Numbered from the stretch's first letter, positions 20,491-37,405 are shown. The stretch: DNA of 42,655 nt from Candidatus Thorarchaeota archaeon (GCA_029855935.1 JAGSHN010000026.1:1-42655); one strand, 5' to 3'. Made by a program: numbers and translations. Notes: generated from the letters alone by a model not told the origin.

Positions 20491-21081
20491 TTGAGCGTGA
20501 TTGGATTGGCTGAGGGCGATGAGACCTCTGACGACATTCCGGTCGCCGACTTTCTGGGTGATCGCGGAATAGTGTGGGACTCTCGGCACGGCACACGTCT
20601 ATACTCCAGTGGCTTCTTCGGTCAACCTGTGGGTATCAGAAAGCCAAAGTCCCCCGAGTTCGACAGACCTCTGGAGCTGTCGCTGCTTGAATGCGCCTAT
20701 CTAGTCGATGCCGGGATGCTACGTGTCATCGACGTGAGCGGGCAGGTCCCGATGACGGTCGACGATCTCATAAGGGCCGGTCTACTTCAGTCTGAGGAGT
20801 TCTATGAACGTTTTCTGGTCTACAAGGACCTGCGTAGGCGCGGGTTTGTGGTGCGTCCGGGGCTTAAGTTCGGGACAGACTTCGCGGTCTACGAGCACGG
20901 CCCGGGAATCGACCACGCGCCGTTCTTGGTCCACGTCATTCCCCAGAGAAAGGGTGTCCAACCCATAGACATGGTCCGAGCTGGCCGACTTGCAACGTCT
21001 GTGCGTAAGAAGTTCATCATAGCAACCGTCAAGGAGTCGGAGGAGATTACGTACTACTCCTTTGTCTGGCACCGCCCCTAG
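20491..21081 (+). CDS. endA: tRNA-intron endonuclease, catalytic subunit
   Basis: LSLLECAYL, VYKDLRRRG, GLKFGTDFAVY, GPGIDHA, VRKK (Tyr/His/Lys triad). Confidence 0.95.
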   Translation: MSVIGLAEGDETSDDIPVADFLGDRGIVWDSRHGTRLYSSGFFGQPVGIRKPKSPEFDRPLELSLLECAYLVDAGMLRVIDVSGQVPMTVDDLIRAGLLQSEEFYERFLVYKDLRRRGFVVRPGLKFGTDFAVYEHGPGIDHAPFLVHVIPQRKGVQPIDMVRAGRLATSVRKKFIIATVKESEEITYYSFVWHRP

Positions 21082-21154
21082 CCTCACCAGCAAAACAAAT
21101 AAGGCGTACCTGCAAGGTCCAATCAGTTTCATCCTGCTTGACGGTGAAGACAGA

Positions 21155-21472
21155 ATGTCAGACAAAGCGGAGAACGCGAAGGCCTTTGGCGACATCCTTA
21201 TGCAGGCTTGGGAGCACACTCCCTCCTTCATCTGCAGCAATGAGGACTACATCTATTGTCTGTTTCCTGCTGATGAGACCAACGAACGGTGGATCGAGGC
21301 CTCGATAACATTCCCAGATGGCTCTCTTGAGAAGAAGGAGATTGACTCCTCAAAGGCAATTGCCCTACTGGTTGAGGAGTTGAAGGTCCTTCCGACCTAT
21401 GGTGTCGAGTCGATTGTCAGCACCAAGGCCAAGCTGGATGAAGCGCTTGCTCGCCTCAGCACGCTGAAGTGA
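21155..21472 (+). CDS. Hypothetical protein (105 aa, acidic)
   Basis: SD GGTGA before ATG, protein-like composition; no family recognised. Confidence 0.75.
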   Translation: MSDKAENAKAFGDILMQAWEHTPSFICSNEDYIYCLFPADETNERWIEASITFPDGSLEKKEIDSSKAIALLVEELKVLPTYGVESIVSTKAKLDEALARLSTLK

Positions 21473-21779
21473 GATGTGTTGACATCGTGATACCATGCTG
21501 TGAGGAGGGTCCCACAGAGTCATAGTTGTCTTGGCGGAATGTGGTGATGTCATTCATCCCTCTGAATTCTATGGTTAACTACCTGCTGTTTCATCGTCAT
21601 TGCACGGCTGATGCAGCAACTTGGGGCACAGGGCGTCTTTGTTTCAAGACTCTCTCACTTGAGGGCCTACCTGTGAGATTGCTCTCTCCGCCGGGCGACA
21701 CTAGGGCAATCTGCTGTGGGGCGTTGTGACAGATCGTGTTGGAAACGTAACGAGTTGTGTGTTCTTGGGTGAAATCGCA

Positions 21780-22091
21780 ATGACCGAGAATCTATCGGAC
21801 TGTACTCCTCTCTGTAAGAGCTTTCGTTGTGATAGAAAGCCATCGGCACTAAAGATTCGTCGCAGAGGGGGAAGGAAAGTCATCTGGTGCACGTGGGTCG
21901 ACGATGAGTGCGACGGTCCGTGGTGCCAGTTCGGTGTGTGCCGTGAACTCAAGATGACCGCGGACGGGAAGTGCAAGAAGACCGTGGCGCCACCAAGGCC
22001 TCAACCGGTGGCAATTCCCGAGGACGACTATATCGACCCTGACGAACTGCCGGAACGAGTGGCCAAGAAACTGAGGGTGCGGGAGCGGTAG
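21780..22091 (+). CDS. Small Cys-rich (8 Cys) hypothetical protein
   Basis: SD GGGTGA; CxxxCxxxxC...CxWxxDxCxGxxCxxxxC...C pattern. Confidence 0.75.
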   Translation: MTENLSDCTPLCKSFRCDRKPSALKIRRRGGRKVIWCTWVDDECDGPWCQFGVCRELKMTADGKCKKTVAPPRPQPVAIPEDDYIDPDELPERVAKKLRVRER

Positions 22092-22323: not shown

Positions 22324-22446
22324 TTGTTCGAAGAGGTTCGTCCCGAGATGCGTGCCCTGATATTCTTGATGATTGGTCTATCTCTCTTGGGCATTGGCAT
22401 TCTACTCAACCAGGCGAAGTTTGCAATAGACTTTCTCAGTCCGTGA
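22324..22446 (+). CDS. 40-aa single-TM micro-protein (below ORF track cutoff)
   Basis: TATA-like TCTATAA near 22280, SD AGGTGA, TTG start, MFEEVRPEMRALIFLMIGLSLLGIGILLNQAKFAIDFLSP. Confidence 0.55.
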   Translation: MFEEVRPEMRALIFLMIGLSLLGIGILLNQAKFAIDFLSP

Positions 22447-22473
22447 TCGGAGTTTCTGGCTGCGTGATTCCTG

Positions 22474-23478
22474 TTGCCGCAGATAGATGATATTGTTGAC
22501 TCCCTCCGCTCCTTTGAGGGAATCACCCGCAAGTATGTGATTCCAGATATCATCAGAAAGATCCGTGAGATCTCGTACAGGGGTGGCCTTCCGCACTCTC
22601 TGGGAGAGGACTCTGCGACAATCGGGACAGAGAGCGACGAGTACGTCCTCCTGACGACCGACTCTGTGGTGGAGGAACTGTGTCGCAGTCATCCCCGAGC
22701 TGCTGGATTCAATGTGGTCTTGGCCAACATTATGGACATCTATGCTGCAGGCGGTGTTCCGACCTCCTTTGCTGTCGCGCTATCCTACTCCTCACCATCG
22801 GTGGGTGAGGGTCTCCTTCAAGGGGTGATCGAGGGATCTCACGCCTTTGAGGTTCCCATCATTCGTGGTCACACCAATCCCTCTGCGAGCTGCACCTACA
22901 TAGTCGGTGCCGCCACTGGAAGAGTCAAAGTCGACGATGTGCTGACGGCCGGGGGCGCCACGAATGACGATCTTCTGGTCTTGATCTTCGACCCACAAGG
23001 AAGACGGGGTCGGTACTATCGTCTGGGCTGGGACACGGTCACCAAACGTTCCAGTGATGACAATATCCGTCGTCTCACAGTAATGACCCGGATTGCCCAG
23101 GAGCATCTCGCTACCGCCGCAAAGGACATCTCAACCGCAGGACTGGTGGGCACGGCCGCAATGATGGTGGAGTACTCAGGGATGGGGGCTCTCGTGGATC
23201 TTGATACACTGGACAGGACCCGTCCCTCAGCAATACCGCTCAAGGACTGGATTCGCATGTTCATCTCGTTGGGTTTCCTACTCTCTGTGAAACAGTGTCA
23301 TCTTGCCCGTGTTGAGGAGCTGACACAAGAGCACGGTCTTCGTGCAGTGGTCATCGGGCACGTGAACGACTCCGGGACACTGGACCTACAGTACGGCGAC
23401 GAGAGAAGGAGACTGTTCGACTTTCGCGATGGCCCCCTACTCACTCCTGCGGGTGAGGACTCGGATGAGCCGTCATAG
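22474..23478 (+). CDS. PurM/AIR-synthase superfamily protein (selenophosphate synthetase-related / methanogenesis marker 2-like)
   Basis: LRSFEGITRK, GEDSA, TTD, VLANIMDIYAAGG.P, RGHT, KDISTAGLVG. Confidence 0.85.
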   Translation: MPQIDDIVDSLRSFEGITRKYVIPDIIRKIREISYRGGLPHSLGEDSATIGTESDEYVLLTTDSVVEELCRSHPRAAGFNVVLANIMDIYAAGGVPTSFAVALSYSSPSVGEGLLQGVIEGSHAFEVPIIRGHTNPSASCTYIVGAATGRVKVDDVLTAGGATNDDLLVLIFDPQGRRGRYYRLGWDTVTKRSSDDNIRRLTVMTRIAQEHLATAAKDISTAGLVGTAAMMVEYSGMGALVDLDTLDRTRPSAIPLKDWIRMFISLGFLLSVKQCHLARVEELTQEHGLRAVVIGHVNDSGTLDLQYGDERRRLFDFRDGPLLTPAGEDSDEPS

Positions 23479-23518
23479 TTAAATCGTTCAGCTACTCGAC
23501 AATGCTGGAGTGAACGCA

Positions 23519-23755
23519 GTGTCAACTTCTACGAAGGTCTGCAGCATCGTCGGGTGCGACAAACCATCAAAGAGGTCCTTCTCGCGAGACAGGATCCTCC
23601 AGAGCATCATCAAGAGCGGCCTCAGGGTCAAGGAGCCACGATCTGGCAGGGATGCGCGTTCGCGAAAGGTCTACCTCTGTGCTGACCACTGGAAGGTAGT
23701 CAAGAAGGTGTTCAAGAAGGAGACCCGACCGGAACGTATGCGTTGGGGCCACTGA
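23519..23755 (+). CDS. Small basic C2CH zinc-finger-like protein
   Basis: CSIVGC...YLCADHW, Lys/Arg-rich; SD GGAGTGA. Confidence 0.7.
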   Translation: MSTSTKVCSIVGCDKPSKRSFSRDRILQSIIKSGLRVKEPRSGRDARSRKVYLCADHWKVVKKVFKKETRPERMRWGH

Positions 23756-23808
23756 TATCGCCTGCTCTCACTCTTCGGTTTCAACTGGTCCTTTGGGGGC
23801 GCCGTAGA

Positions 23809-24165
23809 GTGCCGGAAGCAGATAGTGTCTCAGGCCTGACTCCTCACTGGAAGCTCTGGCTTGAGCATGACGGTCGGTATGTCTTTGGGCGGGGTGCGTT
23901 TCTCCTGCTGAGAGCAATTCAGGATACGGGAAGCCTCACCGCTGCGGCTCAGCGTGTGGGTATGTCGTATCGCTATGCCTGGGGAATCATCCGAAAGGTC
24001 GAACGGGAGTTGGGTGCGCCAGTCGTGGAGACGCATCGCGGGGGCGCTGTTGGGGGCGGCGGGACGAGTGTGACCCCGGTCGGAGCGAGGCTGATTCGCG
24101 CGTTCTCTCTATTGGACGAGGCCTTTCAGAGGACCGCTGCACAACTCCAGGCTGACCTGCTGTGA
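23809..24165 (+). CDS. Stand-alone ModE N-terminal winged-helix regulator
   Basis: KLWLE...FGRG..LLRAI.DTGSL.AAA...GMSYRYAW...RGG..GGG. Confidence 0.9.
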   Translation: MPEADSVSGLTPHWKLWLEHDGRYVFGRGAFLLLRAIQDTGSLTAAAQRVGMSYRYAWGIIRKVERELGAPVVETHRGGAVGGGGTSVTPVGARLIRAFSLLDEAFQRTAAQLQADLL

Positions 24166-24166
24166 G

Positions 24167-25216
24167 CTATGAGAAGCGAAGTTCAATCGCCTTGTTCGGA
24201 CAGTGGCTCATGCACTCCAAGCAGAGGATGCAGTCGGCACTGTACATGTGGTCGTAGGGAAACTTCCTGATCTGAATGTTCATCGGGCAGACAACCTCGC
24301 ACACATTGCACGTGTCAGGTGTGCATCTCGCGGGGTTTCTGCCGATGCCTATGAGCGCGTCCCTTGAGAATAGACCGTAGAACCATCCTGCAGGACACAG
24401 CCATCTACAGAACCAGCGTGGCACCCAGAAGGAGACAACGAGGACGAACGTGACGAAGATGACCTGAAGCCAGACCACTGTGCCCCAGACCGAGAGATAC
24501 CACAGCGTATCGAGTCCCGTGGGCCAGACCTGGTTGGCCATGACCACAAATATGATGTATGCCGGGTTGAATGGGTCAAACGCCGCGTTGGCAAACATCC
24601 CGAGGACTGCCTCTAGGTCCTCCGCTGTGCCGGTCAACCTGCTCAGCCCCATCCACACTGCAAGGCCGACGACAATGACAAAGACGTACGCCTTGACTCG
24701 CCTGAGCTCTCTCTCTGTGTTGGGCGCAGGCCGCACCTTTGACCTGTTCGGCAAGGTGGCAAAGTCTTGGAGCGTACCAATGGGACAGATCCAGCCGCAG
24801 GCCACACGACCGAGGACAGTGAGGATGAGAATCATTGCTCCGAGGGTGAAGAACGGGAATATGCCACTGGAGAGCTCTCTCTGCATAGTGTCAAAGGACC
24901 CTGCAATCATCCCGAAGGGGGCCTCCAGCGGGGCGATGATTGGCAACGTCGGGATGGCGTTCCTCACACTCTCCCAGAAAGCGGTTATCTGTTCGTTGCC
25001 CCACCATGCTGCAAAGATGTAGCCATTGATTCCCAGCAGGAACAGAATCTGCACGACACGCCTGAGCATTCGGATGTTGAACACAGCACCCACGACCCGT
25101 CGTGCCAGTCCGGGTCGTTTCTCCATCGCCCTCTCTGCCCTCTTGGTCTCAGCTTCAGAGGATTTGTCCCTGTTCTCTTCCTTCTCCGTGCCAGGCGTCT
25201 CGGCATCCTTTGCCAT
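24167..25216 (-). CDS. Membrane-bound 4Fe-4S protein (NapH/MauN family)
   Basis: GRVACGWICPIG, RWFCRWLCPAG, CxxxxCxxCxxxCP, CILCLECMSHCP; multiple TMs. Confidence 0.9.
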   Translation of the reverse strand: MAKDAETPGTEKEENRDKSSEAETKRAERAMEKRPGLARRVVGAVFNIRMLRRVVQILFLLGINGYIFAAWWGNEQITAFWESVRNAIPTLPIIAPLEAPFGMIAGSFDTMQRELSSGIFPFFTLGAMILILTVLGRVACGWICPIGTLQDFATLPNRSKVRPAPNTERELRRVKAYVFVIVVGLAVWMGLSRLTGTAEDLEAVLGMFANAAFDPFNPAYIIFVVMANQVWPTGLDTLWYLSVWGTVVWLQVIFVTFVLVVSFWVPRWFCRWLCPAGWFYGLFSRDALIGIGRNPARCTPDTCNVCEVVCPMNIQIRKFPYDHMYSADCILCLECMSHCPNKAIELRFS

Positions 25217-25303
25217 CAGGTTCAGTCCTCGTCACCGGCGTATCGAACGGCGAAGACCTGAGGGCAGATTAAAAACGTTGTGCTGGACTGACATCGGCCC
25301 TGC

Positions 25304-25711
25304 TCATCGGCTGAAGGATATCGCAATCGTCCCGTTGTTCAGTTTCACCCTCAGAAGGTACACACCTGGCGAGTCAGGTGCGTCTGTCAGCAGTAGTGGG
25401 TGTGTGTATGTCTCAGTCCACAGGACTGGAGCGTCCTGTCCGGACTCGTATCGAACGGTCAGCGCTGTACCGTCCACATTGATGGAGACCCCATGGGGGA
25501 CCAACAGTTCAAGTGTCACCGACTCGGCCATTCCAGTGTCGACGGATGCGGTGGCATTATGCAGGACCTCCGCGAAGTGGCTTGCCTCCTCCAGTTGAGA
25601 TGCCGCATTGAAGTACTCAATTGAATAGAGGAGGACCGGTACTGCGACACTGGCTGCAGTCATCAGACCCACCGCAAGCAGCACCATCTTCTCTAGCGAT
25701 CTTGAGACCAT
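25304..25711 (-). CDS. Hypothetical N-terminally anchored protein, possibly pilin-like
   Basis: SRSLE then a hydrophobic helix, an amphipathic helix and a beta-rich C-terminus. Confidence 0.6.
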   Translation of the reverse strand: MVSRSLEKMVLLAVGLMTAASVAVPVLLYSIEYFNAASQLEEASHFAEVLHNATASVDTGMAESVTLELLVPHGVSINVDGTALTVRYESGQDAPVLWTETYTHPLLLTDAPDSPGVYLLRVKLNNGTIAISFSR

Positions 25712-25797
25712 ATCTCTCAGTGTATGCGGACCAGCAATAAACTCCTCGCTGGCTAGTGTTATAACCTGCCGCACGAAGACACACAAGGCGTGCAGGA

Positions 25798-27189
25798 ATG
25801 ACTGAGGAGCCGGTCACGGTACATGTGGGCCTCACTGGTCACATAGACCATGGCAAGACAGCTCTCGCTGCAGCGCTCAGTGAGGGTGTCTTCACAGCTG
25901 GTCTTGACAGACATCCACAGGCCCGGCAGCGAGGGATGACAATTGATCTCGGATTCACAATGTTCCATCTCGGCGACTATGTTGTGACCCTAGTCGATGC
26001 TCCGGGACACGCTGATCTCATCCGGAGTGTTGTCGCGGGGGCCAGCATAATCGATATGGCAATTCTCACGGTCGCCGCGGACGAGGGGCCCAAGGTACAG
26101 ACTGGTGAGCATCTTGTCGTTCTCGACTCGATGGGCATATCCTCTCTTCTCGTTGCAATCACCAAGATTGACCTTGTTGGTCGAGAGCAGGTCGAGAGGG
26201 TCGAGCGGCAGATGCGGTCGATACTCAGCGATCTGTCCTTTGACGATGTCCGCTTTGTGAGGGTGTCAGCGAAGACGCGTGAGGGCCTCGATGAACTGAG
26301 GCAGACGCTGCTGGACATGCTCCGCCCACGACCTCGAGACCGCGACGGTCCGTTCCTGATGCCAATAGACCACGCCTTTCCCGTCCGTGGTCACGGCACG
26401 GTCGTGACGGGTACCATCCTTCGAGGGTGTATCTCCTCAGACAATTTGGTAGAGCTAGCGCCACAGGGCCTGCGGGCGCGTGTCCGTACGATTCAGACCT
26501 TTGGGCAAAGCCGGAAGGCTGCTTGTGCCGGTGACCGGGTTGGCATCAACGTTCCCGACCTCGACCACAGAGACATCGTCCGTGGCTACTACCTCTGTCA
26601 GCCTCACTCGCTGGCGAATAGCCCGCAGTTCCTCGTGAGACTGCAGAGGACAAGACTCTACAGCGGGCGGGTGACCTCAGGTATGAGGCTGTCTGCCCAC
26701 GTTGGAATGCGCGCGGTGACCTGCGAGGTCATCCCACTTGTCGAGATTGAGGGGCGTCTTGTATTGTGTGAGGAGGCGGAAGACGAGGAGTTCCTTGCTG
26801 TGTTACGATCATCGCGCCCCATTGCAATAGAACCCGGAATGCGCGTCCTACTCCTGCGGACAGACCTTCCACCCACCACCATGCGTATTGTGGCATCGGG
26901 GGCGGTCCGGTGGACTACATCACCGACCACGGTATACAGACGTACGGTTCGGCGCGGGACTGTGCACCGTCTGCGTGAGGCCGACGTACTCGTCGTCGGA
27001 CTGGCCACCCGGCGTGAGCGTGCACTGCAGCTTCGTGGTCTGCGTGTGAGGGCTGCTGGTGGGGCCGTGGGGACGATTGGCGAGCCCTTTGGGACAAAGG
27101 GGGTTGTCAGCATATCATTCGACTCCCCAGTCACCGAGGGTGAGGAGGTCTATCTTGATGTGTTTCGTGAGGTGAGACTTGGTGGATGA
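25798..27189 (+). CDS. selB: Selenocysteine-specific elongation factor (archaeal SelB/EFSec)
   Basis: GHIDHGKT, RGMTID, DAPGH, TKID, SAK; IDHAF in domain II; C-terminal GEPFGTKG domain; overlaps SepSecS. Confidence 0.95.
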   Translation: MTEEPVTVHVGLTGHIDHGKTALAAALSEGVFTAGLDRHPQARQRGMTIDLGFTMFHLGDYVVTLVDAPGHADLIRSVVAGASIIDMAILTVAADEGPKVQTGEHLVVLDSMGISSLLVAITKIDLVGREQVERVERQMRSILSDLSFDDVRFVRVSAKTREGLDELRQTLLDMLRPRPRDRDGPFLMPIDHAFPVRGHGTVVTGTILRGCISSDNLVELAPQGLRARVRTIQTFGQSRKAACAGDRVGINVPDLDHRDIVRGYYLCQPHSLANSPQFLVRLQRTRLYSGRVTSGMRLSAHVGMRAVTCEVIPLVEIEGRLVLCEEAEDEEFLAVLRSSRPIAIEPGMRVLLLRTDLPPTTMRIVASGAVRWTTSPTTVYRRTVRRGTVHRLREADVLVVGLATRRERALQLRGLRVRAAGGAVGTIGEPFGTKGVVSISFDSPVTEGEEVYLDVFREVRLGG

Positions 27190-28504
27190 ACTGGAACGAC
27201 GGCTCTTGGAGACCATACCCACTAACATGGCGGCGAGAGGGCTCACCACTCTAGATGCCCTCATACGACCGATTCGCGACCTACTGAGTCGGCAGCAGTT
27301 TCCAGAGGAGTCACTGTCTGACAGACAGATCGAATGGCTCCTGAAACTGCTCTCCTCAATGGACTCTGACAAGGACCCTGCTGCCGCACGGGTGGGAGAG
27401 AGAGAGGGTCGCGTGGCATCTCCTCTGGTGGAGCGCCTCTCCTTCGCGTTCAACCATGGCGTGGGTCGCAGCGGTCATGTGACGGCACCACAGCCAAAGG
27501 CCGCCGGCGCGTCCCTGATGCAGCAGCTCTGCAACAATGTAGCTGTTGATGCAATTCGTCGTCTTGGCCTTCCCAACATCCGGCACGGCCTAGTACTCCC
27601 GGTATCGACGGGGATGTGCATCGCTCTCGTATTTGCGGCTCTGCGCCGGGAGCTTGGTGTGAGACGAGTCTTCTACCCACGAATTGACCACAAGTCCCCG
27701 CGTCGCGGACTGGCACTCGCTGGTGTCGAGGTGATTGAGGTCCCGACTATATTGACTGGCGATGCCGTCCGTCCGAACCTTGACTGGCTGAGTACCGTGC
27801 TGCCCGAGAGAAGAGACGAGGCTGCTGTTCTCGCCACGACCACGTTCTTTTCACCACGAGAGCCCGACCCTGTAAAGGAGATTGCCCGGCTCTGCAGCGA
27901 CCTTGACACGCCTCTCGTGATCAACAATGCCTATGGTGTGCAGTCTCCCCGCATCATGGCCATGATACGCTCTGCGGTTGATGCAGGTCGGGTCGATGCT
28001 GTGATACAGAGCAGTGACAAGAACTTCTTGGCCCCCGTTGGTGGGTCCATTCTCGTGTCAGCATCTAGAGACATAGTGGAGTGGACGGCTGCGACATACG
28101 CTGGTCGTGCCACCGCCGCACCAGTTGTCCAGACGCTTGCGGCCCTTCTGGCTCTTGGCAGGTCTCGATATGAGCAACTACGTTCAGAACAGGCCGAGAA
28201 CAGACAACTCCTCGAAACGATGCTGGGCGAGGTGGCCGATGCTGTCGGGCAGCGATTGCTCTCGGTGTTCAATCCAGTTTCTTGCGCGATGACCCTCGAT
28301 GGTCTTGACGCCCGGGTCATTGGAGCGAGGCTGTACAGTGCGCGAGTGACGGGGCCACGTGCGGTGGAGCAGGGAGATCAGGGTTCGTGCATCGATGGAT
28401 ACCCCCACAGCTATGTAGTTATGAACGCTGCAATCGGATCCTCACGTGAGGATGTCGAGACGGCAGTCGCCAAACTTCATAAGGAGCTCTCTCAAATGAT
28501 GTAA
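27179..28504 (+). CDS. spcS: O-phosphoseryl-tRNA(Sec) selenium transferase SepSecS
   Basis: MDSDKDP, GEREGR, GVGRSG, QPKAAG, DHKSP, NNAYG, SSDKNF (PLP Lys), YAGRA. Confidence 0.97.
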   Translation: MVDELERRLLETIPTNMAARGLTTLDALIRPIRDLLSRQQFPEESLSDRQIEWLLKLLSSMDSDKDPAAARVGEREGRVASPLVERLSFAFNHGVGRSGHVTAPQPKAAGASLMQQLCNNVAVDAIRRLGLPNIRHGLVLPVSTGMCIALVFAALRRELGVRRVFYPRIDHKSPRRGLALAGVEVIEVPTILTGDAVRPNLDWLSTVLPERRDEAAVLATTTFFSPREPDPVKEIARLCSDLDTPLVINNAYGVQSPRIMAMIRSAVDAGRVDAVIQSSDKNFLAPVGGSILVSASRDIVEWTAATYAGRATAAPVVQTLAALLALGRSRYEQLRSEQAENRQLLETMLGEVADAVGQRLLSVFNPVSCAMTLDGLDARVIGARLYSARVTGPRAVEQGDQGSCIDGYPHSYVVMNAAIGSSREDVETAVAKLHKELSQMM

Positions 28505-28549
28505 CCGTTTCCGACTGAGCGTGTCTCTGAGTTGTGATGGTGCGACGCT

Positions 28550-29185
28550 ATGACAACAGTCTCTCGAACTCTCCACTACGACGAACAGAGCCCATCGACA
28601 GTGTTCAGGATAGTCTGGTACGCGGCCGCACTGAGGCCTGGAGTCATACTGGTCGACCACAGCGAGGCTGAGAGCAAGACCCTCGACGCATCTGCGGAGT
28701 TCCAGCTGGACCTCGATGGCAAGCGGGTCAGCCTACAGGCGCACATCCGTGGCGATGATCGCTCTGTAGAATTGACAGTCTCCGGTGATGTCGACGGCTC
28801 AGCACTCGAGTCATATGTGGACGGCCTGACTCAGGAGATAGAGTCGCTGATCAAGAAGTTCGCTGCTATGGATGAGGCCACCCAACAACGTGTTGACCGC
28901 GCACTCTTAGCGAAGGCATGTTGGGACCGTGTGATTGCTGGCGTCCTCAAGAAGAGCCCTAGCAGCGACATATATTTCCAGCTCGCGCACGGCCGCGAGA
29001 TGATAATCAAGGCGACAGAGGGCGAGGATGTTCCTCCAATGGCGCTCACGACCAGTTCGTGGATCTCAAACATAGAGTCATTGCCACAGGACGAGCCGCT
29101 TCCCGCCTCCGTGGCGACCGATCTCGCAAAGAAGTGTGTCGAGTGGAAGAAGGAGACTCTGGAGATCTTGCGTCGGTATCTATGA
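28550..29185 (+). CDS. Hypothetical protein inside the Sec cluster
   Basis: 211-aa ORF with protein-like composition, between spcS and tRNA-Sec on the same strand. Confidence 0.8.
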   Translation: MTTVSRTLHYDEQSPSTVFRIVWYAAALRPGVILVDHSEAESKTLDASAEFQLDLDGKRVSLQAHIRGDDRSVELTVSGDVDGSALESYVDGLTQEIESLIKKFAAMDEATQQRVDRALLAKACWDRVIAGVLKKSPSSDIYFQLAHGREMIIKATEGEDVPPMALTTSSWISNIESLPQDEPLPASVATDLAKKCVEWKKETLEILRRYL

Positions 29186-29219
29186 TGTCTCTGGTGTGAC
29201 TGACATCCACATCACTGAT

Positions 29220-29310
29220 GGCCCCCAGCAGTGTCGGTGGTCCGGCGCCGCGGGCTTCAAACCCGTGATCGCGCAAGCGATGAGAGTTCGATTCTCTCTG
29301 GGGGCCGCCA
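29220..29310 (+). tRNA. selC: tRNA-Sec (anticodon TCA), 9/4 fold
   Basis: 9-bp acceptor GGCCCCCAG/CTGGGGGCC, 7-bp D stem with 4-nt loop, 6-bp anticodon stem with TCA at 29257-29259, variable arm ATCGC-GCAA-GCGAT, 4-bp T stem, G73-CCA. Confidence 0.96.
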
Positions 29311-29320
29311 CTCACGCCAT

Positions 29321-30115
29321 TCAAGACCTCAATATCCCATCCTCGTACAGCCTGCGCCGTAGAATATCGAGTGTTTCGGCCTCTGACAGCCCCTGTCGCA
29401 GTGCTGTCTTCAACACCTCTCTCCGCAGCTTGGACAGTCGTTGAGGGTCGCTCCTGGCTGGGTGGTCTCGAATGAAGGCAGCCACCAGACGCCTTGTGGC
29501 GACATCGAGCGAGGTGGCCCGCTCGTCTCTTGATGACGATGCCATCATTCTGCCCCTTCCTCTCTCCTCGGTTTCGATGAGTCTTCTGAGTCCACTGACC
29601 ACTAGTCTCGCAGCCTCGTCCACACCCATCACAGAGAGGTCCGCTGCAGCAATTGGCCGATCCCAGGCATAGCGGAGGCCCGGCGGGTCGAGTCTGTCAG
29701 CAATCCTCCGAAGCACCTCCTCCGGAACCTGGCGTCTTCTCTGTCTGTTCCAGCGTAGCGCGACCGCGAGTGGTGTCGTGACGTACACGACGCCAAACGC
29801 GACACTCATCCTCTCAGCAACGACCAATAGCTCGTGACGCATGCTGGCGTAGTAGTTCGTGTCATCGTGAATGACTGACTGTCCCTGATCCAGTGTCCTC
29901 TCGGCTCGTCTCAACGCCTTCTGCCGCACTGCATGTTCTCGCTCTGGTGTGAAGTTCCTGTAGTACTCGTCATCACGCAGAGCATCGGTGCTGATCAGAG
30001 TCGCGGGTCGAAGGTCGTCTGTCAGTTGAGCCAAGACAGCCTCTGCAAGGGTGGTCTTGCCCGATGCTGGAATGCCGCACAGCGCGAGGAGAAACTGTGG
30101 CATCAGAGGGTCCAC
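29321..30115 (-). CDS. pstK: O-phosphoseryl-tRNA(Sec) kinase
   Basis: GIPASGKTT, DDTNYYASMRHEL, RWNRQR, YAWDRP; adjacent to tRNA-Sec. Confidence 0.93.
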   Translation of the reverse strand: MDPLMPQFLLALCGIPASGKTTLAEAVLAQLTDDLRPATLISTDALRDDEYYRNFTPEREHAVRQKALRRAERTLDQGQSVIHDDTNYYASMRHELLVVAERMSVAFGVVYVTTPLAVALRWNRQRRRQVPEEVLRRIADRLDPPGLRYAWDRPIAAADLSVMGVDEAARLVVSGLRRLIETEERGRGRMMASSSRDERATSLDVATRRLVAAFIRDHPARSDPQRLSKLRREVLKTALRQGLSEAETLDILRRRLYEDGILRS

Positions 30116-30209
30116 CGAGTCTATTGTCCCCTGCTGTACAAAAGGAGTTTGTGGCCCGCCTCAAGAACGCGGTCCGCCCGGGGCGTTGCGCCACAAGACA
30201 TACAACGGT

Positions 30210-31154
30210 TCACGGACGGATTGTTATCTGTAGGCTGCTGGCGAGATCCTTGTACCTATTCCTGACCGTGACCTCTGTGACATTGGATGCCTCAGCAATC
30301 TCTCTCTGCGTCCGCCTGTCGTTGGTTATGATGCCAGCAATGTAGAGCGCCGCAGCCGCCAGTCCACCGGGGTCTTTTCCGGCTGTGATCCCCCTCTCAC
30401 GTGCCATGTCGATTATCTCCATGGCCTTCTGGACCGTACGACCATCGAGCCCGAGGTCGGACGATATTCTTGGCATCAGGTCATTGGCTGACGGGATGGG
30501 GACCTTCATCCTGACATTGCGCAGTATCAGCCTCACGCACTGTCCCAACTCCTTTCTGTTGACCCGCGCCTCAGTGACAATCTCATCCAGCTGTCTCGGT
30601 ATCCGGTGGATGCGACAGGAGAGATAGATTGCAGCCGCCACCATCCCCTCGATTGAACGCCCACGGACCAGTCTTCGGCTTAGTGCCTTCCTGTAGATCA
30701 GTGCGGCGGTCTCCTTCGCCTCGCTGGGAACACCGAGCTGCGAGGACAGTCGGTCAAGCTCGCTCATCGCGATTGACAGATTCCGGTGCTGTGAGCTGTG
30801 GACGAGTGTGCGAATCTGCCACTTCCTCATCCGATAGATTGCCGCCCGGGAGCTGCCGGATATCGCGCGACCGTTCGCGTCTCTGTCGCTCCAACCGAGA
30901 GTCGTTGCCAAGCCCTTATCGGCCATAGTGAGAGTAAGTGGCGAGCCCGTCCTCGCGCGCGCGTTTCTCTCCTCGGTTGTGAAGGCCCTCCACTCGGGTC
31001 CGGTGTCCATTATTCTCTCATCGAGGACACAGCCACACGATGTGCAGATGAACTCCCCCCGGGTGTGGTCCTCGTAGAACTCACTGCCGCCGCATATGGA
31101 ACACACCTGCAGCCCACGTTGTCTCTCTGTCGTAGGTCGCACTGGTCTTGCCAT
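30210..31154 (-). CDS. tfb: Transcription initiation factor IIB
   Basis: Zn ribbon CSIC..CTSC, DTGPEWRAF, two cyclin repeats (GRSIE, GKDPGG), VTEVTVRNRYK. Confidence 0.97.
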   Translation of the reverse strand: MARPVRPTTERQRGLQVCSICGGSEFYEDHTRGEFICTSCGCVLDERIMDTGPEWRAFTTEERNARARTGSPLTLTMADKGLATTLGWSDRDANGRAISGSSRAAIYRMRKWQIRTLVHSSQHRNLSIAMSELDRLSSQLGVPSEAKETAALIYRKALSRRLVRGRSIEGMVAAAIYLSCRIHRIPRQLDEIVTEARVNRKELGQCVRLILRNVRMKVPIPSANDLMPRISSDLGLDGRTVQKAMEIIDMARERGITAGKDPGGLAAAALYIAGIITNDRRTQREIAEASNVTEVTVRNRYKDLASSLQITIRP

Positions 31155-31431
31155 TGTGTCTTCACCATCCAGGTGGTCCCCGCGGGAGATGGCCGCGTGC
31201 ATAGGACCCGAATAGGTGGTCAAAAGCACGCTCCGAACGGGAAACGCTTGCGTAGCCCGAGCCCGCCGCCTAATAAATCTAAGGATTGACGAAGGAATGC
31301 ATCACTGTAGAATAGTCAGGAACTGGTCTATGCATGGTGGCACTGTTCTCGATGATGGGCAGCACGGTGGAAAAACAAGATGTCGGGCCCAGCCAACAAT
31401 CTGTTGAACAGTCTCTGGGGCGATAATGAAG

Positions 31432-31463
31432 CGGGCCCGGCGCCCGACTGAGCACCGGGCCCG
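31432..31463 (-). terminator. GC-rich 14-bp hairpin 3' of ORF 31501-32070
   Basis: Minus strand CGGGCCCGGTGCTC-AGTC-GGGCGCCGGGCCCG pairs fully with G-U allowed; followed by CTTCATTAT. Confidence 0.45.
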
Positions 31464-31500
31464 GGGGTGGTGGCGTTGTTGTGATGTGTAACGAGTCCGT

Positions 31501-32070
31501 CTACTCCAGACAGGACCAGCTCTGGATCGCTGACTCGGGGATCACATGTACATTGTCGTAGAAGACCTGACCAGAGTCAAGCACTGTCTTGTTAAGAGCC
31601 ACTCGGAAGACACCATCCTCCCTTGAGATGAGATATCCGGCAATGTACTTGACCGGGACCTTTGTCTGTCGGGCCTGCTCCTCAGACAGCGAGCAACACT
31701 CGACAACCGGGCTGACGAAGGAGACCTCCACGAGCTTATGGCTCTCACACTGGTCCGCACGCCTGAGCGTCCTGGACCTCTCAATGCGCTCGCGGCCGAT
31801 GATGTTCTCGATCTCATTATGGTCATAGTGATATGGCTCGCCCGGTATGAGATGTATTGACGGGGACACGTAGAGGACCCTTCCTTGGACCTCCTCCGTA
31901 GCACCCGCGCCACGATCCACCAGTCGCCTCTCTTGGCTCTCGCCCACTACGAAGCGCACGTGATAGTGCTTGGCATCTACAGACCTCTCTTCTCCGTTCT
32001 CATCTACAGCAACTGTTGCCTCATGCCACACCTCAATGGGGGTAAATGGATTCTCAGTGGAAACTGTCAT
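31501..32070 (-). CDS. Hypothetical protein (possible C-terminal Sm-like beta-barrel)
   Basis: 189-aa ORF with AT-rich promoter; LVEVSF...AGYLIS.....VAL...VIPESAI pattern. Confidence 0.7.
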   Translation of the reverse strand: MTVSTENPFTPIEVWHEATVAVDENGEERSVDAKHYHVRFVVGESQERRLVDRGAGATEEVQGRVLYVSPSIHLIPGEPYHYDHNEIENIIGRERIERSRTLRRADQCESHKLVEVSFVSPVVECCSLSEEQARQTKVPVKYIAGYLISREDGVFRVALNKTVLDSGQVFYDNVHVIPESAIQSWSCLE

Positions 32071-32086
32071 TCTCTGTCACTTCACA

Positions 32087-32103
32087 ATAGTTAAATTAAC
32101 TAT
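32087..32103. promoter_or_regulatory. Palindromic operator-like site ATAGTTAA-A-TTAACTAT
   Basis: Perfect 8-bp inverted repeat in a divergent intergenic region. Confidence 0.55.
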
Positions 32104-32175
32104 GGTTATTAGGTCTGTAGAGATATAAGTGTTGCGACCCATCCTGTCATCCGCAGCCTGAATCGCCATCATCGG

Positions 32176-32838
32176 GTGTCTGTCGTGTTCCAATACATTC
32201 TCATCATCAGCACTGTCGTTCTCTTCGGGGCCCTCCACTCGGGCCTCTCAAGTCACCGCGTGAAGTACCGTATCGTAGATAGATACGGCAATCAGACTTA
32301 CTCTCAGGTCTTCAAGTGGATCAGCATTGTCAGCTTCATCATCGCCTTCCTGTCGATTGGCTACTGGGACTGGCTCTACTTCGTCTACGATCCCGCAGTG
32401 ATACTCACTCCGAGATTCGTTCTTGCCACGGTGTTGCTCATTGTCGCTCTCGTCGTGGCCTGGCGCGCGTCAGTGGTCATATCGATAAACTCCGCCGCAG
32501 ACATGCGTAGCGAACGCCTCCCCGACCTCGCCACGGGTGGGATATACTCACGGATTCGGCACCCGCTCTATCTGGCGACCGTGATGATGTTTCTCACGCT
32601 GGCCCTGATATACCCGGATCTCCGAGTAGTGGTCTTCGCACTGGGAATGGCCGTATACACAGTGTTTGGCGCGTATCTTGAGGAGAGGAAGCTCATAACG
32701 TACTATGGAGATGAGTACCTCCGCTACAGGCAGACTGCGGGATTCCTTCTTCCACGCCTCAGACGACCCCGTGTCCTTGATTCTGCTACTGGCTCTGCAT
32801 CATCTGCTGAATCTTTGAGAGATGCCGGGACCTCTTGA
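32176..32838 (+). CDS. Isoprenylcysteine carboxylmethyltransferase / PEMT-family membrane protein
   Basis: FGALHS, LATGGIYSRIRHPLY, EERKL..YG.EY.RYR. Confidence 0.85.
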   Translation: MSVVFQYILIISTVVLFGALHSGLSSHRVKYRIVDRYGNQTYSQVFKWISIVSFIIAFLSIGYWDWLYFVYDPAVILTPRFVLATVLLIVALVVAWRASVVISINSAADMRSERLPDLATGGIYSRIRHPLYLATVMMFLTLALIYPDLRVVVFALGMAVYTVFGAYLEERKLITYYGDEYLRYRQTAGFLLPRLRRPRVLDSATGSASSAESLRDAGTS

Positions 32839-33226
32839 CCGCCTCGGGGCTCACCTCATACACCTTGCCTCTCTCGACAACGAAGTGTGCGGTCTCGATG
32901 TCGGTTGTGAAGTGTCTTCTGATGTCTTCAATGACATAGTGCAGCTGGACACAGTGGGGACTACCGTCGACCGTCAGAGCAGTGACTCTCTTTATTCCCG
33001 AATACCTCACTATCGACGCAATCTTGAAGCCCGCATGATTGACGTGAATCTCCTCAAGACAGATGTCGAGCACAGCTGGTCCTCCCTCTCTCTGGCGAAA
33101 CTCCTCAACAACCTCTGGGTATCGGGACATCATACAACTCCCAATTAGAAGCAGGTTTCCCGCCTCTCTGAGACGCCTGTCTCCCACATTTGTCCTCATC
33201 AGACACCCATCACAGTCGCAGCCCAT
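32786..33226 (-). CDS. Putative Fe-S / metal-binding protein
   Basis: CDCDGCLM, LLLIGSC, ICLEE.H, LTVDGSPHCVQLH. Confidence 0.7.
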   Translation of the reverse strand: MGCDCDGCLMRTNVGDRRLREAGNLLLIGSCMMSRYPEVVEEFRQREGGPAVLDICLEEIHVNHAGFKIASIVRYSGIKRVTALTVDGSPHCVQLHYVIEDIRRHFTTDIETAHFVVERGKVYEVSPEAVKRSRHLSKIQQMMQSQ

Positions 33227-33229
33227 GAG

Positions 33230-34165
33230 TCACCACTTCCTCCGCGGAGCACTCTCCTCATCTCTGTCGCGAATTGGCGTCCGTTCAGCGAGCGGTGCTG
33301 CCACACGTGCGACCACATCACCCTCGAACACATAGGTCATTCGGCTGAGTGCGACCACGGCGCCCTCCTGTGTCGTGACCACGGGACTCTTGTCCTGAAT
33401 GGCGCCCAACGGTTCATTCTGGGACACGACCTCTCCGAGATTGATCAACGGGACGAAGAAGCCCTCCTCTGAGACGTTGACCTTCTGAGCTCTGCCCATC
33501 AGCGTGTTCGAGACCTCCATAGGCTCACCGGACACCACGTTCACGACTCTGAGGAGATTCAGGACGGCCTCCTTTACTTCGACTGCGGCCTGCGGGTCCA
33601 CCTCTCCGCGTCCCCCGCGCATCACAATGGTGAGGGCTGCAATGCCCTCATGTGCAGCCTCGACGGAGAGCGCACCCCTTGTGCCCGGGGACTGGACGAC
33701 AAGAGGTAGTGCCACTTGGGTGGCAAGATTTCGGACGTGAATGTAGTCCCGATGTAGTGCCACCACGTGGCTGACGCAGGACAGGGTGTCTGTCTCTAGT
33801 TGAATGATGTATCGGGCGCTCATTGCCCTTCTCCATATCTCTCGGGCGGTCCTCTCGGTCACGGTGCCTCTCTCGTCACCCGGGAATGTCGAGTCGAGGT
33901 CACGGGAGTCGAGCGGCGAGACCGCGGCTCCCAGCCTGAATGCCAGAGGATTAGCCACTGGGAGAACGGTGACGGAGCCGTCGATTCTCTCCTGTGAACG
34001 TAGTTCTCTCATTATCAGGTAGCTGGCGTAGACATCTGTAGCTGACAGCCCACTCATACCGGCGACCAGCAGAACGTTCGGCTCGTCTCGTCCGTATGTG
34101 TAGAATCCGAGTGTGGTACCAGTCTTCAGGTCAATATCGACAGCGTCAACGCTCGGACTGACCAA
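33230..34165 (-). CDS. Succinylglutamate desuccinylase/aspartoacylase-like protein with degenerate active site
   Basis: GSVTVLPVANPLAF, SPLD..DL...FPGD..GT.TER.A, C-terminal barrel-sandwich hybrid; Zn ligands absent. Confidence 0.8.
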   Translation of the reverse strand: MVSPSVDAVDIDLKTGTTLGFYTYGRDEPNVLLVAGMSGLSATDVYASYLIMRELRSQERIDGSVTVLPVANPLAFRLGAAVSPLDSRDLDSTFPGDERGTVTERTAREIWRRAMSARYIIQLETDTLSCVSHVVALHRDYIHVRNLATQVALPLVVQSPGTRGALSVEAAHEGIAALTIVMRGGRGEVDPQAAVEVKEAVLNLLRVVNVVSGEPMEVSNTLMGRAQKVNVSEEGFFVPLINLGEVVSQNEPLGAIQDKSPVVTTQEGAVVALSRMTYVFEGDVVARVAAPLAERTPIRDRDEESAPRRKW

Positions 34166-34483
34166 TGTCTTGTTCTCCTACTGGCGCTGTTCTATCTCTC
34201 CACCGTGTCGAATATGAAGGAGTGTAACACAAAGGCACTCGTGCGAGAGAGCGTCCACACTCGTTCTACGTGGGACAGAGGTCGCTCACAGACCGATTCC
34301 CGACATGGTCAATGTTCGCTGGCCAAAGCTCTAATAAGGGACTTCTCACCCAACTCCGCACGAGAGTGAGCCAGGATGGATTGCGTTCTCAGATGAGCAT
34401 CACTGTTTCTGCGAGTCCTTTATAGAGGGCTCTCGCGTTGGCTCATTCGTGCTGTGGACACACAACAATCATAGTAGAGGCCA

Positions 34484-37405
34484 GTGAAGTTGAGTGACGA
34501 AGTGAGCGAGTTCACAAAGATCGAGCAGAAATGGCAGAAGAGATGGGAAAAGGACCACATATTCGAGGCCGACCCAGATCCCACTAGGCCCAAGTTCTTC
34601 ATCACAGTGCCCTATCCTTACACAAATGGGGCACTGCATATCGGTCACGGGCGGACGTACACGGTCGGCGACCTCATTGCGCGGTACAAGCGGATGCGAG
34701 GTTTCAATGTCCTGTTTCCGATGGCGTCTCATATGACAGGCACACCCATTCTGGGCATGGTGGAGCGTATCAAGGCTGGCGACAAGGAGGCCATCGAGCA
34801 GTACAAGCGTGACCTGCGGCTCTATCTGAAGACGGAGGAAGAGGTCGAGGCGCAGCTTGCGAAGTTCACTGATCCGTGGGTCACTGCGAAATTCTTTGCG
34901 GATGCCATATCCGCCGATTTCAAGGCGCTCGGATACAGCATCGACTGGCGCAGGAAGTTCACAACAGGCGACAAGATCTACAATCAGTTTGTCACTTGGC
35001 AGTATCACAAGTTCAAGAAGAAGGGCTACCTCAAGCAGGGCGACTACCCCCTTCTGTACTGTCCGCACTGCGGCAACCCGGTCGGTGAGGATGACCTGCT
35101 GGAGGGTACAAACGCGAAGATCAAGGAGTTCACAGCCATCAAGTTCAGCTTTGAGGATGGCTACATAGTGCCAGCGACGCTGCGGCCGGAGACAATCTTT
35201 GGTATCACGAACATGTGGATCAATCCCAGTGCCACCTATGTCTGGGCACGAGTCAATGGCGAAAAGTGGTTGATATCAGAGTCCGCAGCCGAGAAGCTGA
35301 AACTACAGGCCAAAGAGGTTGAAATTCTGGAGCGTTTTCCCGGCGCAAGGGTCGTGGGAAAGAAATTCAGGGCCATTCACGATGACCGTGAGCTGCCCAT
35401 TCTGCCTGCAGACTTTGTGGACCCGGACAATGCCACCGGAGTCGTCTACTCTGTTCCTGCTCACGCACCATATGACTACATCGCGCTGCGTGACCTCTGG
35501 GAGGATCCCTCTGGGCTGGAGCAGTACGGCATCTCGGCGGAGGATGTCCGCAGCATCGAGATGATCAGTATGATTGACATTGCTGGGTACAGCGAGTTTC
35601 CGGCGAAGGATGCTGTCGAGGCTCACGGGATAAAGAATCAGAGCGAGATTGAGGCGCTGGAGGAGGCGACTCAGGAGATCTACAAGGCCGAGTTCTACGA
35701 GGGTCGGATGAAGGACAACTGTGGTCAGTTCTCTGGACGCCTAGTCCGGGAGGTCAAGGACGATGTCGTCGCCTGGCTGAAGGCCAACAACAGGGCAGAC
35801 GTCTTCTACGAGCCGGACATACGTCCTGTCATCTGCAAGTGTGGAAGTGATGTGCACGTTGGAGTCTTTGCTGGCCAGTGGTTCCTCGACTACACAAGCC
35901 CGGGCTGGAAGGAGAAGGCTCGTGAGGCCCTAGACGGGATGTGCATAGTCCCCGAGATCTACCGGAACCTGTTCGAGGCGACCTTTGACTGGTTGACACA
36001 GCGACCCTGTGCTCGAAAGCGCGGTATTGGCACTCCACTGCCTTTCGACCCAGAGTGGATCATCGAGTCGCTCTCTGACTCCACAATCTATATGGCGTTC
36101 TACACAATCGCCCACAAGATCACCAGCAACAAGCTGAGGCCTGAACAGCTGACTCTGAGCTTCTTCGACTATGTGTTCCTCGGCAAGAGACCAGTCGAGA
36201 AGGTCGCCGAGGAAACGGGCATCGACGTCTCGCTGCTGAAGGATATGCGCGAGGAGTTCCTGTACTGGTATCCGAATGACCAGCGTCACACTGCACCCTC
36301 CCACATAACGAATCACCTCAGCTTTGCCATCTTTCATCATGTGGCCATCTTTCCAAAGAAACACTGGCTGAAGTGCATCAGCTTGAACGAACACGTCAAT
36401 ATGGAGGGGGCCAAGATGTCCAAGAGCAAGGGCAATGTCATCCCTCTCGTCGAGATTCCCAAGAAGTACGGTGCGGATGTCTATAGGACGTACGCGATAT
36501 CTGCAGCTGAGCCGTCGAGCCTGATGGACTGGAGAGAGCGCGATGTCCCAGCTGTGCGCAATCGGCTGAGGCGCTTCATCGAGATAATGGAGAAGTACTC
36601 ACGAGGGGAGCCGCACGCCTACTCGAAGAAAGAGAGGCCTACTATGGTGACCCGCTGGCTTCAGTCGCGTGTCAACTCCATCGTCCGTGACGCGACCAAG
36701 AGTCTGGACGAGTTCAAGCTACGCGACTACGCTCTGCTGGTGACAACGGAGATGATTCGTGTCATCAATCACTATCTGCGACGCAAGGAGGTACCTGAGG
36801 CGGAGCGAAAGGCTGCCATGGCCTATGTGTGCAACATCTGGGTGCGACTCGTCGCCCCAATGACGCCACACATTGCTGAAGAATTCTGGCACAAGATGGG
36901 TCGCGACGGGTACGTGTCACTGGCGTCGTGGCCAAAGTCCGACAAGAAGATGATCGACGGGCGTGTGGAACGGGCGTTCTCTGTCGTTGAGTCGACCGTG
37001 GCGGACATTCGCGAGATATTGAGTCTCCTCAAGGGGAAGAGTGCCAAGAGAGTCTACGTCTATGTAGCTCCTCAGTGGAAGTTCGATGTCTTGGAGAGTA
37101 TTCGACAGGCCAACCTGCCACTGGTGATGAAGGACATCATGAAACATGTGATGTCCAACCCTGAGTTCCGCAAGCGTGGCAAAGAGGTTCAGGCGCTTGT
37201 CACAAAGATATCAAAGGAGGGCAGCCTGTGGGATCACTCTGCAACTGCAAAGGACGAATTCGAGGCCATCTCGGGGTCGTCCGACTACATTCAGTCCGAG
37301 GTCGGTCTTGAGGTGAATGTCCAGTGGGCTGACAGGCCCGAGTATGATCCTGCTGGGCGCGCCAAGAACGCACTCCCCGGGAGAGTATCTCTCTATATCG
37401 AGTGA
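34484..37405 (+). CDS. leuS: Leucine--tRNA ligase (archaeal/eukaryotic type)
   Basis: PYPYTNGALHIGH, TLRPET and SVPAHAPYD editing domain, IESLSDSTIYMA, KMSKS. Confidence 0.98.
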   Translation: MKLSDEVSEFTKIEQKWQKRWEKDHIFEADPDPTRPKFFITVPYPYTNGALHIGHGRTYTVGDLIARYKRMRGFNVLFPMASHMTGTPILGMVERIKAGDKEAIEQYKRDLRLYLKTEEEVEAQLAKFTDPWVTAKFFADAISADFKALGYSIDWRRKFTTGDKIYNQFVTWQYHKFKKKGYLKQGDYPLLYCPHCGNPVGEDDLLEGTNAKIKEFTAIKFSFEDGYIVPATLRPETIFGITNMWINPSATYVWARVNGEKWLISESAAEKLKLQAKEVEILERFPGARVVGKKFRAIHDDRELPILPADFVDPDNATGVVYSVPAHAPYDYIALRDLWEDPSGLEQYGISAEDVRSIEMISMIDIAGYSEFPAKDAVEAHGIKNQSEIEALEEATQEIYKAEFYEGRMKDNCGQFSGRLVREVKDDVVAWLKANNRADVFYEPDIRPVICKCGSDVHVGVFAGQWFLDYTSPGWKEKAREALDGMCIVPEIYRNLFEATFDWLTQRPCARKRGIGTPLPFDPEWIIESLSDSTIYMAFYTIAHKITSNKLRPEQLTLSFFDYVFLGKRPVEKVAEETGIDVSLLKDMREEFLYWYPNDQRHTAPSHITNHLSFAIFHHVAIFPKKHWLKCISLNEHVNMEGAKMSKSKGNVIPLVEIPKKYGADVYRTYAISAAEPSSLMDWRERDVPAVRNRLRRFIEIMEKYSRGEPHAYSKKERPTMVTRWLQSRVNSIVRDATKSLDEFKLRDYALLVTTEMIRVINHYLRRKEVPEAERKAAMAYVCNIWVRLVAPMTPHIAEEFWHKMGRDGYVSLASWPKSDKKMIDGRVERAFSVVESTVADIREILSLLKGKSAKRVYVYVAPQWKFDVLESIRQANLPLVMKDIMKHVMSNPEFRKRGKEVQALVTKISKEGSLWDHSATAKDEFEAISGSSDYIQSEVGLEVNVQWADRPEYDPAGRAKNALPGRVSLYIE

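Follow-up and report, generated by a model that had tools for sequence, protein, structure and literature searches.

Sel_Asgard, an Asgard archaeal protein encoded between SepSecS and tRNA-Sec: a candidate adaptor with a possible role outside selenocysteine synthesis

Introduction

The coupling of the 3′-UTR SECIS to SelB in archaea is an unsolved problem, and the Asgard archaea stand at the archaeal–eukaryotic transition of the selenocysteine (Sec) system. This makes a gene that is confined to Asgard archaea and joined to SepSecS an obvious candidate for a missing Sec-pathway factor, and it had already been flagged as one. Such a gene is found in the stretch of 42,655 nucleotides from Candidatus Thorarchaeota archaeon analyzed here (hereafter, the window), which raises the question of whether its product serves the Sec system or a more general function. 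Huang et al. 2024 (ISME J, PMC11227280) described an Asgard-exclusive hypothetical protein (e.g., MBD3157761.1) often encoded beside secS, efSec, and pstk, which is probably the protein studied here. The family (in NCBIfam), its Sec neighborhood (Huang et al. 2024), and its domain class (Makarova et al. 2024) were all previously on record, while the profile link to the tail of the cog.003822 scaffold (99.3%) and the colinear deletion in genome G370 were computed in the present analysis.

Results

Selenocysteine cluster and family membership

The window contains the genes for SelB, SepSecS, tRNA-Sec, and PSTK around the Sel_Asgard gene (Table 1). The 3′ end of SelB and the start of SepSecS overlap by 11 nt, and Sel_Asgard is separated by 45 nt from SepSecS upstream and by 34 nt from tRNA-Sec downstream; the ORF listing and the coordinates of SepSecS and tRNA-Sec thus agree with the 211-aa ORF and the two gaps given in the preliminary description of this locus. 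PSTK also matches TIGR03574 (E 7.8e-41, 140 bits), under the curated cut-off of 290.5. The SelD gene of the same genome is located on a different contig and has an in-frame TGA, indicating that the genome uses selenocysteine.

Table 1. Features of the window around the Sel_Asgard gene, with the two predicted domains of its product.
Feature	Coordinates	Strand	Description
Syntenic block	20491..22091		
PurM-superfamily gene	22474..23478	+	
Fer4_5 polyferredoxin-like membrane protein	24167..25216	-	Pfam Fer4_5, E 8e-12
SelB/EFSec, archaeal	25798..27189	+	TIGR00475, 283 bits (cut-off 242); aSelB_III and eEFSec_4th domains
SepSecS (spcS), putative upstream operon partner	27179..28504	+	PF05889, E 8.2e-109; TIGR03531, 437 bits (cut-off 224.85)
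Sel_Asgard family gene	28550..29185	+	ATG start; 211 aa and stop; NF045535 match
N-domain, residues 1-105	28550..28864	+	beta-alpha-beta4-alpha, TBP-like fold (DSSP order on AlphaFold2 model)
C-domain, residues 108-211	28871..29182	+	four-helix bundle, Vps28-C-like (AlphaFold2 model)
tRNA-Sec, anticodon TCA	29220..29310	+	ARAGORN; Rfam RF01852, 64.4 bits
PSTK, convergent with tRNA-Sec	29321..30115	-	KTI12, PF08433, E 1e-30
TFB, next after PSTK	30210..31229	-	85% identical ortholog adjoins Sel_Asgard in G370

With an E of 1.4e-56 and a score of 191.5 bits (cut-off 132), the window protein matches the equivalog-type NCBIfam profile NF045535, named "Sel_Asgard, putative selenocysteine system protein"; its residues 12-207 are aligned to profile positions 2-194 of 195. 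It had been described as belonging to no recognized family, which holds for Pfam (no family at E ≤ 1) but not for NCBIfam. The homologs of Sel_Asgard fall into 57 protein clusters; several homologs are already named Sel_Asgard by NCBI, and their source names, where given, are Thorarchaeota or Promethearchaeota. Orthologs were found in 250-281 of the 400 Asgard genomes, with no match in the 14 control genomes (0/14, against 281/400 genomes of the Asgard phylum), and a profile search of 1.84 billion representative proteins yielded only 29 family matches. The ORF is a genuine gene, as seen from its 57 clusters of homologs, its orthologs, their dN/dS of 0.05-0.25, and a confident predicted fold. 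An alternative start was given by one gene caller (GTG, 17 codons inside, 194 aa, P0001); the ATG is preferred because homologs cover residues 1-17 and because the AlphaFold2 (AF2) model has a strand at residues 2-9 (pLDDT ~95). The name "Sel_Asgard" in NCBIfam is a guess from the gene neighborhood, and is unsafe as functional evidence.

Gene order across Asgard lineages

Sel_Asgard is located directly downstream of SepSecS and on the same strand in seven family-level lineages (f1, f4, f16, f17, f21, f22, and f23), with gaps of 45-260 nt and a surrounding gene order that otherwise varies among lineages. In f15, the gene adjoins SelB, 2.3 kb from SepSecS. The tRNA-Sec gene is 3′ of Sel_Asgard in 17 of the 21 Thorarchaeal (f1) loci examined, while in f17 it is convergent to Sel_Asgard and abuts its 3′ end in 3/3 loci (L067, L069, L072); being on the opposite strand, it is not co-transcribed with Sel_Asgard in f17 and requires its own promoter there. 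The adjacency to Sec genes across these deep lineages is strong, and it constitutes the whole case for a selenocysteine role.

An old syntenic block adjoins Sel_Asgard in Thorarchaeia and in the Sec-less lineages f14, f29, and f6 (L051 768-4307; L053 3006-5754; L110 12179-15037; for the window, see Table 1). Its members are PhoU_div/DUF47, an EndA-like protein, a protein of 105 aa, in some cases SPFH and a Zn-ribbon protein, and a Cys-rich ~120-aa protein; it looks as if the Sec genes had been either inserted into this block or deleted from it. The Fer4_5 protein is a recurrent neighbor of the Sec cluster or of Sel_Asgard in Thorarchaeia and Sec-less f14; the window copy has 25% identity (E 2e-40) to the f14 neighbor of Sel_Asgard and 63% to the G370 ortholog, and an ORF of f19 is similar to it by eye only (loci compared: L051 4481-5710; L108 8242-9177; L109 16706-17626; L110 9202-10260). 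The PurM-superfamily gene, which is not SelD, has a homolog in f19 adjoining tRNA-Sec/SepSecS (27% identity, E 1e-44) and is kept in Sec-less G370 (57% identity); the ORF found in the corresponding position in f18 resembles it by eye only (loci compared: L108 7259-8245, L107 7002-7985, and L110 10956-11945).

Distribution against the selenocysteine trait

Sel_Asgard and SepSecS were profiled over the same 400 Asgard genomes, with lineages given as family-level codes. Five lineages have Sel_Asgard and no SepSecS: f14 (19/19 against 0/19 genomes), f29 (4/4 against 0/4), f28 (2/3 against 0/3), f6 (3/4 against 0/4), and f2 (1/1 against 0/1). Conversely, all five genomes of the Sec-using f30 have SepSecS (5/5), next to hdrA-frhD-frhG-frhA genes, and none has a Sel_Asgard homolog even with a broad family profile (0/5, two of these genomes being 100% complete). 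These absences are called from metagenome-assembled genomes, in which the count of 19/19 and the closed genomes make chance absence unlikely. The Sec users f18 and f19 have a C-domain-only relative alone, either unlinked or ~10 kb away. The phylogenetic profile that the preliminary description had suggested for its missing Sec factor therefore went against that proposal, since the co-occurrence of the two genes breaks down in both directions.

In five Sec-less genomes (f2, f14, f28, f29), no tRNA-Sec was found, the best matches to the model being tRNA-Leu, tRNA-Arg, and tRNA-Ser; the Rfam tRNA-Sec model scores tRNA-Leu/Ser/Arg at 42-50 bits in Sec-less genomes, and ARAGORN does not call these as tRNA-Sec. 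Similarly, the same five genomes have no SelD above the cut-off. The copies group by taxonomic family in the maximum-likelihood tree, with one clade per family, and the Sec-less copies are interspersed among the Sec-linked ones, with only the long paralog described below standing separate; the Sec-less copies are thus orthologs rather than members of a distinct paralogous clade. Purifying selection acts on these orthologs, with pairwise dN/dS values (NG86) of 0.05-0.25 in Sec-less lineages against 0.07-0.17 in Sec users. Because selection maintains the gene in lineages that have lost the Sec system entirely, its core function would be independent of selenocysteine.

The EAP30/ESCRT-II profile matched 349 of the 400 Asgard genomes and had no match in 3/3 genomes of f17, which carry Sel_Asgard. 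Being nearly universal, EAP30 is uninformative as a profile, with the exception of f17, which shows that ESCRT-II cannot be the universal partner of Sel_Asgard.

Natural deletion of the Sec genes in G370

A relative from the family of the window's genome, G370 (92% complete), lacks SepSecS. Contig 1 of G370 runs colinear, in inverted orientation, with positions 20491-37405 of the window and shares the genes for the EndA-like, 105-aa, Cys-rich, PurM-like, ModE-like, and Fer4_5 proteins, Sel_Asgard, and TFB, then four more genes, and LeuRS. In the position of the window's 160-aa ORF, G370 has a counterpart of 136 aa, which was not paired by BLAST. SelB and SepSecS are gone from one flank of Sel_Asgard, and tRNA-Sec and PSTK from the other, where TFB now directly adjoins it, with no tRNA left in the locus, and Sel_Asgard itself is retained. 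The G370 protein keeps all Thorarchaeal motifs, and its 62-71% identity to Sec-using congeners is in the range found among those congeners; its dN/dS is ~0.06-0.11, with dS near saturation. In G311 (f2), Sel_Asgard is also found beside a TFB-like ORF and an ORF weakly homologous to the 160-aa one, with no Sec genes.

Predicted structure

The AF2 model obtained from a 23-sequence alignment (pLDDT 91.7, pTM 0.89) has the two domains of Table 1, which bears out the alpha/beta N-domain and helical C-domain that had been recognized by eye. Structural matches of the N-domain obtained with VIA include a Bet v1-like protein (1vjh, Z 11.6), the N-domain of spermine synthase (Z 11.0), the C-domain of phosphopentomutase (Z 10.9), Flpp3 (Z 10.2), and KA1 (Z 9.9), as well as the adaptin appendage platforms of the AP-4 beta appendage (Z 9.6) and the AP-2 beta2 appendage (residues 847-937, Z 9.5). 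We take all of these matches to be of one fold class, the TBP-like fold of SCOP. The adaptin platform has been termed "TBP domain" by Makarova et al. 2024, where Flpp3 serves as the TBP-fold marker.

The C-domain has as its first-ranked match the C-terminal domain (CTD) of Xenopus Vps28 (2j9w_A, 99/101 residues aligned, rmsd 2.4) with a Z of 13.2, and values of ~13 are borderline for helical bundles, so that the likeness to Vps28-C is a resemblance and not a proof. The yeast Vps28 CTDs 2j9v (Z 11.4) and 2g3k (Z 11.3) rank third and fourth, and the three Vps28 CTD alignments cover 93-99 out of 94-101 residues with an rmsd of 2.2-2.8. Foldseek of Sel_Asgard against the PDB gave no match at E ≤ 0.001, and a family-profile sequence search of the PDB gave nothing meaningful (best E 0.19). 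A HEPN nuclease, to which weak Foldseek matches were obtained (RnlA NRD-HEPN), was rejected because of the lack of the Rx4-6H motif, with no conserved His found after any conserved Arg in alignment A2.

Relation to the cog.003822 scaffold and to Vps28

Lokiarchaeial and related genomes encode a second, weak Sel_Asgard match at the C-terminus of a protein of ~790 aa, which carries zinc ribbons and PCI/UFL1/DDRGK-type winged helices and matches Pfam VPS28 with 24.5-27.8 bits. This corresponds to the asCOG cog.003822 scaffold (Makarova et al. 2024, Table S2), with an architecture of Zn ribbons, UFL1/DDRGK winged helices, adaptin-C, and Vps28-C. The last ~220 aa of the long paralog align with the Sel_Asgard family over both domains in hhalign (99.3%, E 1.7e-20, 206 columns), while against Asgard Vps28 directly, Sel_Asgard reaches only 14.6% and the long paralog 30%, and none of 29 diverse Sel_Asgard family members matches Pfam VPS28 (PF03997, 0/29). 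The best description of Sel_Asgard is therefore a stand-alone module, adaptin-platform-like plus Vps28-C-like, and it is not a Vps28 ortholog; the Vps28-C assignment of its C-domain is a resemblance drawn from structure and from the transitive link via the long paralog.

Relatives with only the C-domain (118-144 aa) that keep the D...YF..A..RE motif were found in f17, f18, and f19 and are not adjacent to SepSecS (L081, L083, L084, L085, L088; L109 3251-3685, minus strand). No fusions of Sel_Asgard to SepSecS or other proteins were found in a longer-protein search that also missed the known ~790-aa paralog, and the SepSecS open frames have 439-499 aa throughout the Asgard genomes examined. Another contig of the window's genome encodes separate weak matches to Vps28 (19.1 and 14.9 bits, neither reaching the Pfam cut-off). 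One of these is a 261-aa protein (contig 21, ~164724-165506; L060 1477-2259), whose N-terminus weakly resembles the N-terminal region of Vps28 (positions 2-66 of Pfam VPS28, 14.9 bits) and whose C-terminus resembles an EAP30/Vps22-type winged-helix domain, which fits the arrangement "Vps22 fused to a steadiness box" described for Asgard archaea. In three Lokiarchaeaceae genomes (G149, G205, G242; L095, L096, and L101 against L046, L043, and L024), no more than 7-8 kb separate a bona fide Vps28 gene from the SepSecS-Sel_Asgard pair; these genomes are related, so that the proximity may be shared synteny only; the distance is 50 kb in f21 and far in f16.

Conserved residues and composition

Only D126, R149, and E150 are invariant across the 29 diverse family members of alignment A2, with F19, Y142, and K200 near-invariant, F19 being the only one of these outside the helical bundle. 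A catalytic or selenium-binding role of Cys124/His147 was rejected, as this pair is invariant within Thorarchaeia and replaced in other lineages; likewise, a selenoprotein variant was rejected, as the in-frame TGA of the G115 match is merely its stop codon. The acidic composition noted earlier, from which protein binding had been favored over RNA binding, is a property of the window copy (pI 4.9, net charge -10) but not of the family, which has a median pI of 6.5 and a range of 4.9-9.2. Neither the fold nor the sequence gives a hint of an enzyme, a Cys/Sec site for selenium, or an L7Ae/SBP2-like RNA binder.

Discussion

Proposed function of Sel_Asgard

Here it is proposed, with about an even chance of being right, that Sel_Asgard acts as an adaptor with no catalytic activity, that its core role is independent of Sec, and that in Sec users it may serve SepSecS as a further client. 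The protein would combine two protein-interaction modules, a TBP-fold domain as in the adaptin appendage platform and a Vps28-C-like four-helix bundle, and could be regarded as a stand-alone copy of the C-terminal ~220 residues of the UFL1-like/adaptin-C/Vps28-C scaffold of Lokiarchaea (cog.003822). The helical bundle would dock a partner present in all carriers, since it holds the invariant D126, R149, and E150, plus Y142 and W199/K200; both protein binding and this docking surface are what we infer. In Sec-using lineages, Sel_Asgard would be expressed from the SepSecS operon, and SepSecS, or its complex with tRNA-Sec, may be one client that the adaptor tethers to the general partner. This last step is put forward tentatively, at somewhat less than even probability, and the need of SepSecS for the two-domain protein is weakened by the Sec users f30 and f18/f19, which manage without it.

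The evidence has to be weighed against three other explanations. According to the one retained with the most weight, Sel_Asgard is a housekeeping adaptor unrelated to selenocysteine, perhaps acting in protein sorting, whether ESCRT-linked or not, and its position reflects inherited gene order or shared regulation without any physical or functional coupling to SepSecS. This is possible, although on the doubtful side. It accounts for why selection has kept the gene in five Sec-less lineages, and in G370 once both flanks were lost, as well as for its absence from Sec-using f30; its domain class is that of ESCRT-associated adaptors (Makarova et al. 2024), the old block with EndA, the 105-aa protein, the Cys-rich protein, and Fer4_5 is common to Sec-less f14 and f29, and a true Vps28 is encoded 7-8 kb away in Lokiarchaeaceae. 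However, the same-strand adjacency to SepSecS at 45-260 nt in seven lineages would be unusual without functional coupling, and the relocated copy of f15 still adjoins SelB. An adaptor with a Sec-independent core partner is the simplest reconciliation of the SepSecS linkage in seven lineages with the retention of the gene after the loss of Sec.

A dedicated Sec-pathway factor, that is, an SBP2-like coupler of SECIS and SelB, a tRNA-Sec chaperone, or a selenium carrier, is suggested by the operon position between SepSecS and tRNA-Sec, by the NCBIfam name together with what Huang et al. 2024 (PMC11227280) remarked, and by the lack of SBP2 in Asgard archaea. This reading is quite unlikely, given the Sec-less orthologs, the G370 deletion, the Sec-using f30 with no homolog, and the lack of RNA, selenium, or enzyme features: no L7Ae or other RNA-binding domain was found by Pfam in the window protein or in 29 family members, the family is not consistently basic (pI 4.9-9.2), and there is no conserved Cys/Sec residue for selenium handling. 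Of the missing Sec-pathway factor in the preliminary description, the deep link to Sec genes in seven lineages therefore stands and the dedicated role is unlikely. Highly improbable is a small-molecule binder or enzyme with a Bet v1/SRPBCC-like N-domain as the ligand pocket; Bet v1-like/START proteins are indeed among the top N-domain matches (1vjh, Z 11.6; cytokinin-binding protein; polyketide cyclase-like), but the domain spans ~105 residues that form five strands and two helices, without the long C-terminal helix-grip by which the pocket of Bet v1 is closed, and F19 is its sole residue conserved family-wide, with the invariant residues all located in the helical domain.

Comparative data thus disfavor a dedicated Sec role and favor a protein-docking module common to Asgard ESCRT/adaptin-like scaffolds, which moves the focus of experiments from SECIS and tRNA binding assays to the identification of partners. 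If SepSecS is a client of the proposed adaptor, Sel_Asgard would be the first accessory subunit of the archaeal Sec-synthesis complex. A bolder version, in which a moonlighting Vps28-C/adaptin-platform adaptor physically tethers SepSecS to a general scaffold of Asgard cells, for instance ESCRT-related or membrane-associated machinery, is unlikely; if true, it would imply a localized or channeled synthesis of selenocysteine, a mode not known from any domain of life, and would connect translation recoding with a trafficking module that is a eukaryote signature.

Comparison with known systems

The window protein is fully a member of NF045535, sharing both its Asgard-only range and its Sec-gene neighborhood; contrary to the name of the family, its members are also conserved in Sec-less lineages, and those of f2, f6, f14, f28, f29, and G370 are encoded without Sec genes nearby. 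Compared to the long cog.003822 protein, Sel_Asgard (211 aa) is missing the zinc ribbons, five winged helices, and an Ig-like sandwich, and the long protein forms a separate clade in the tree and is unlinked to Sec genes. The CTD of Vps28 (2j9w, 2j9v, 2g3k) is a four-helix bundle that the predicted C-domain resembles in size and topology; however, Vps28 has a steadiness-box helical hairpin at its N-terminus, where Sel_Asgard has the TBP-fold N-domain, and Sel_Asgard, unlike Vps28, is found outside any ESCRT gene cluster.

With the SBP2/L7Ae SECIS-binding proteins, Sel_Asgard would share a hypothetical role only, as it has no L7Ae domain, a different AF2 fold, and a distribution decoupled from Sec. 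Only a working analogy can be drawn with SepCysE, the scaffold of the archaeal SepRS-SepCysS "transsulfursome", since both would be small non-catalytic bridging proteins encoded with a PLP enzyme that converts Sep-tRNA. A SepCysE-like scaffold shared with the SepRS/SepCysS pathway itself was rejected, as the window's genome has no SepCysS (best match 20 bits). Unlike SepCysE, Sel_Asgard persists in lineages that have no Sep-tRNA pathway gene at all.
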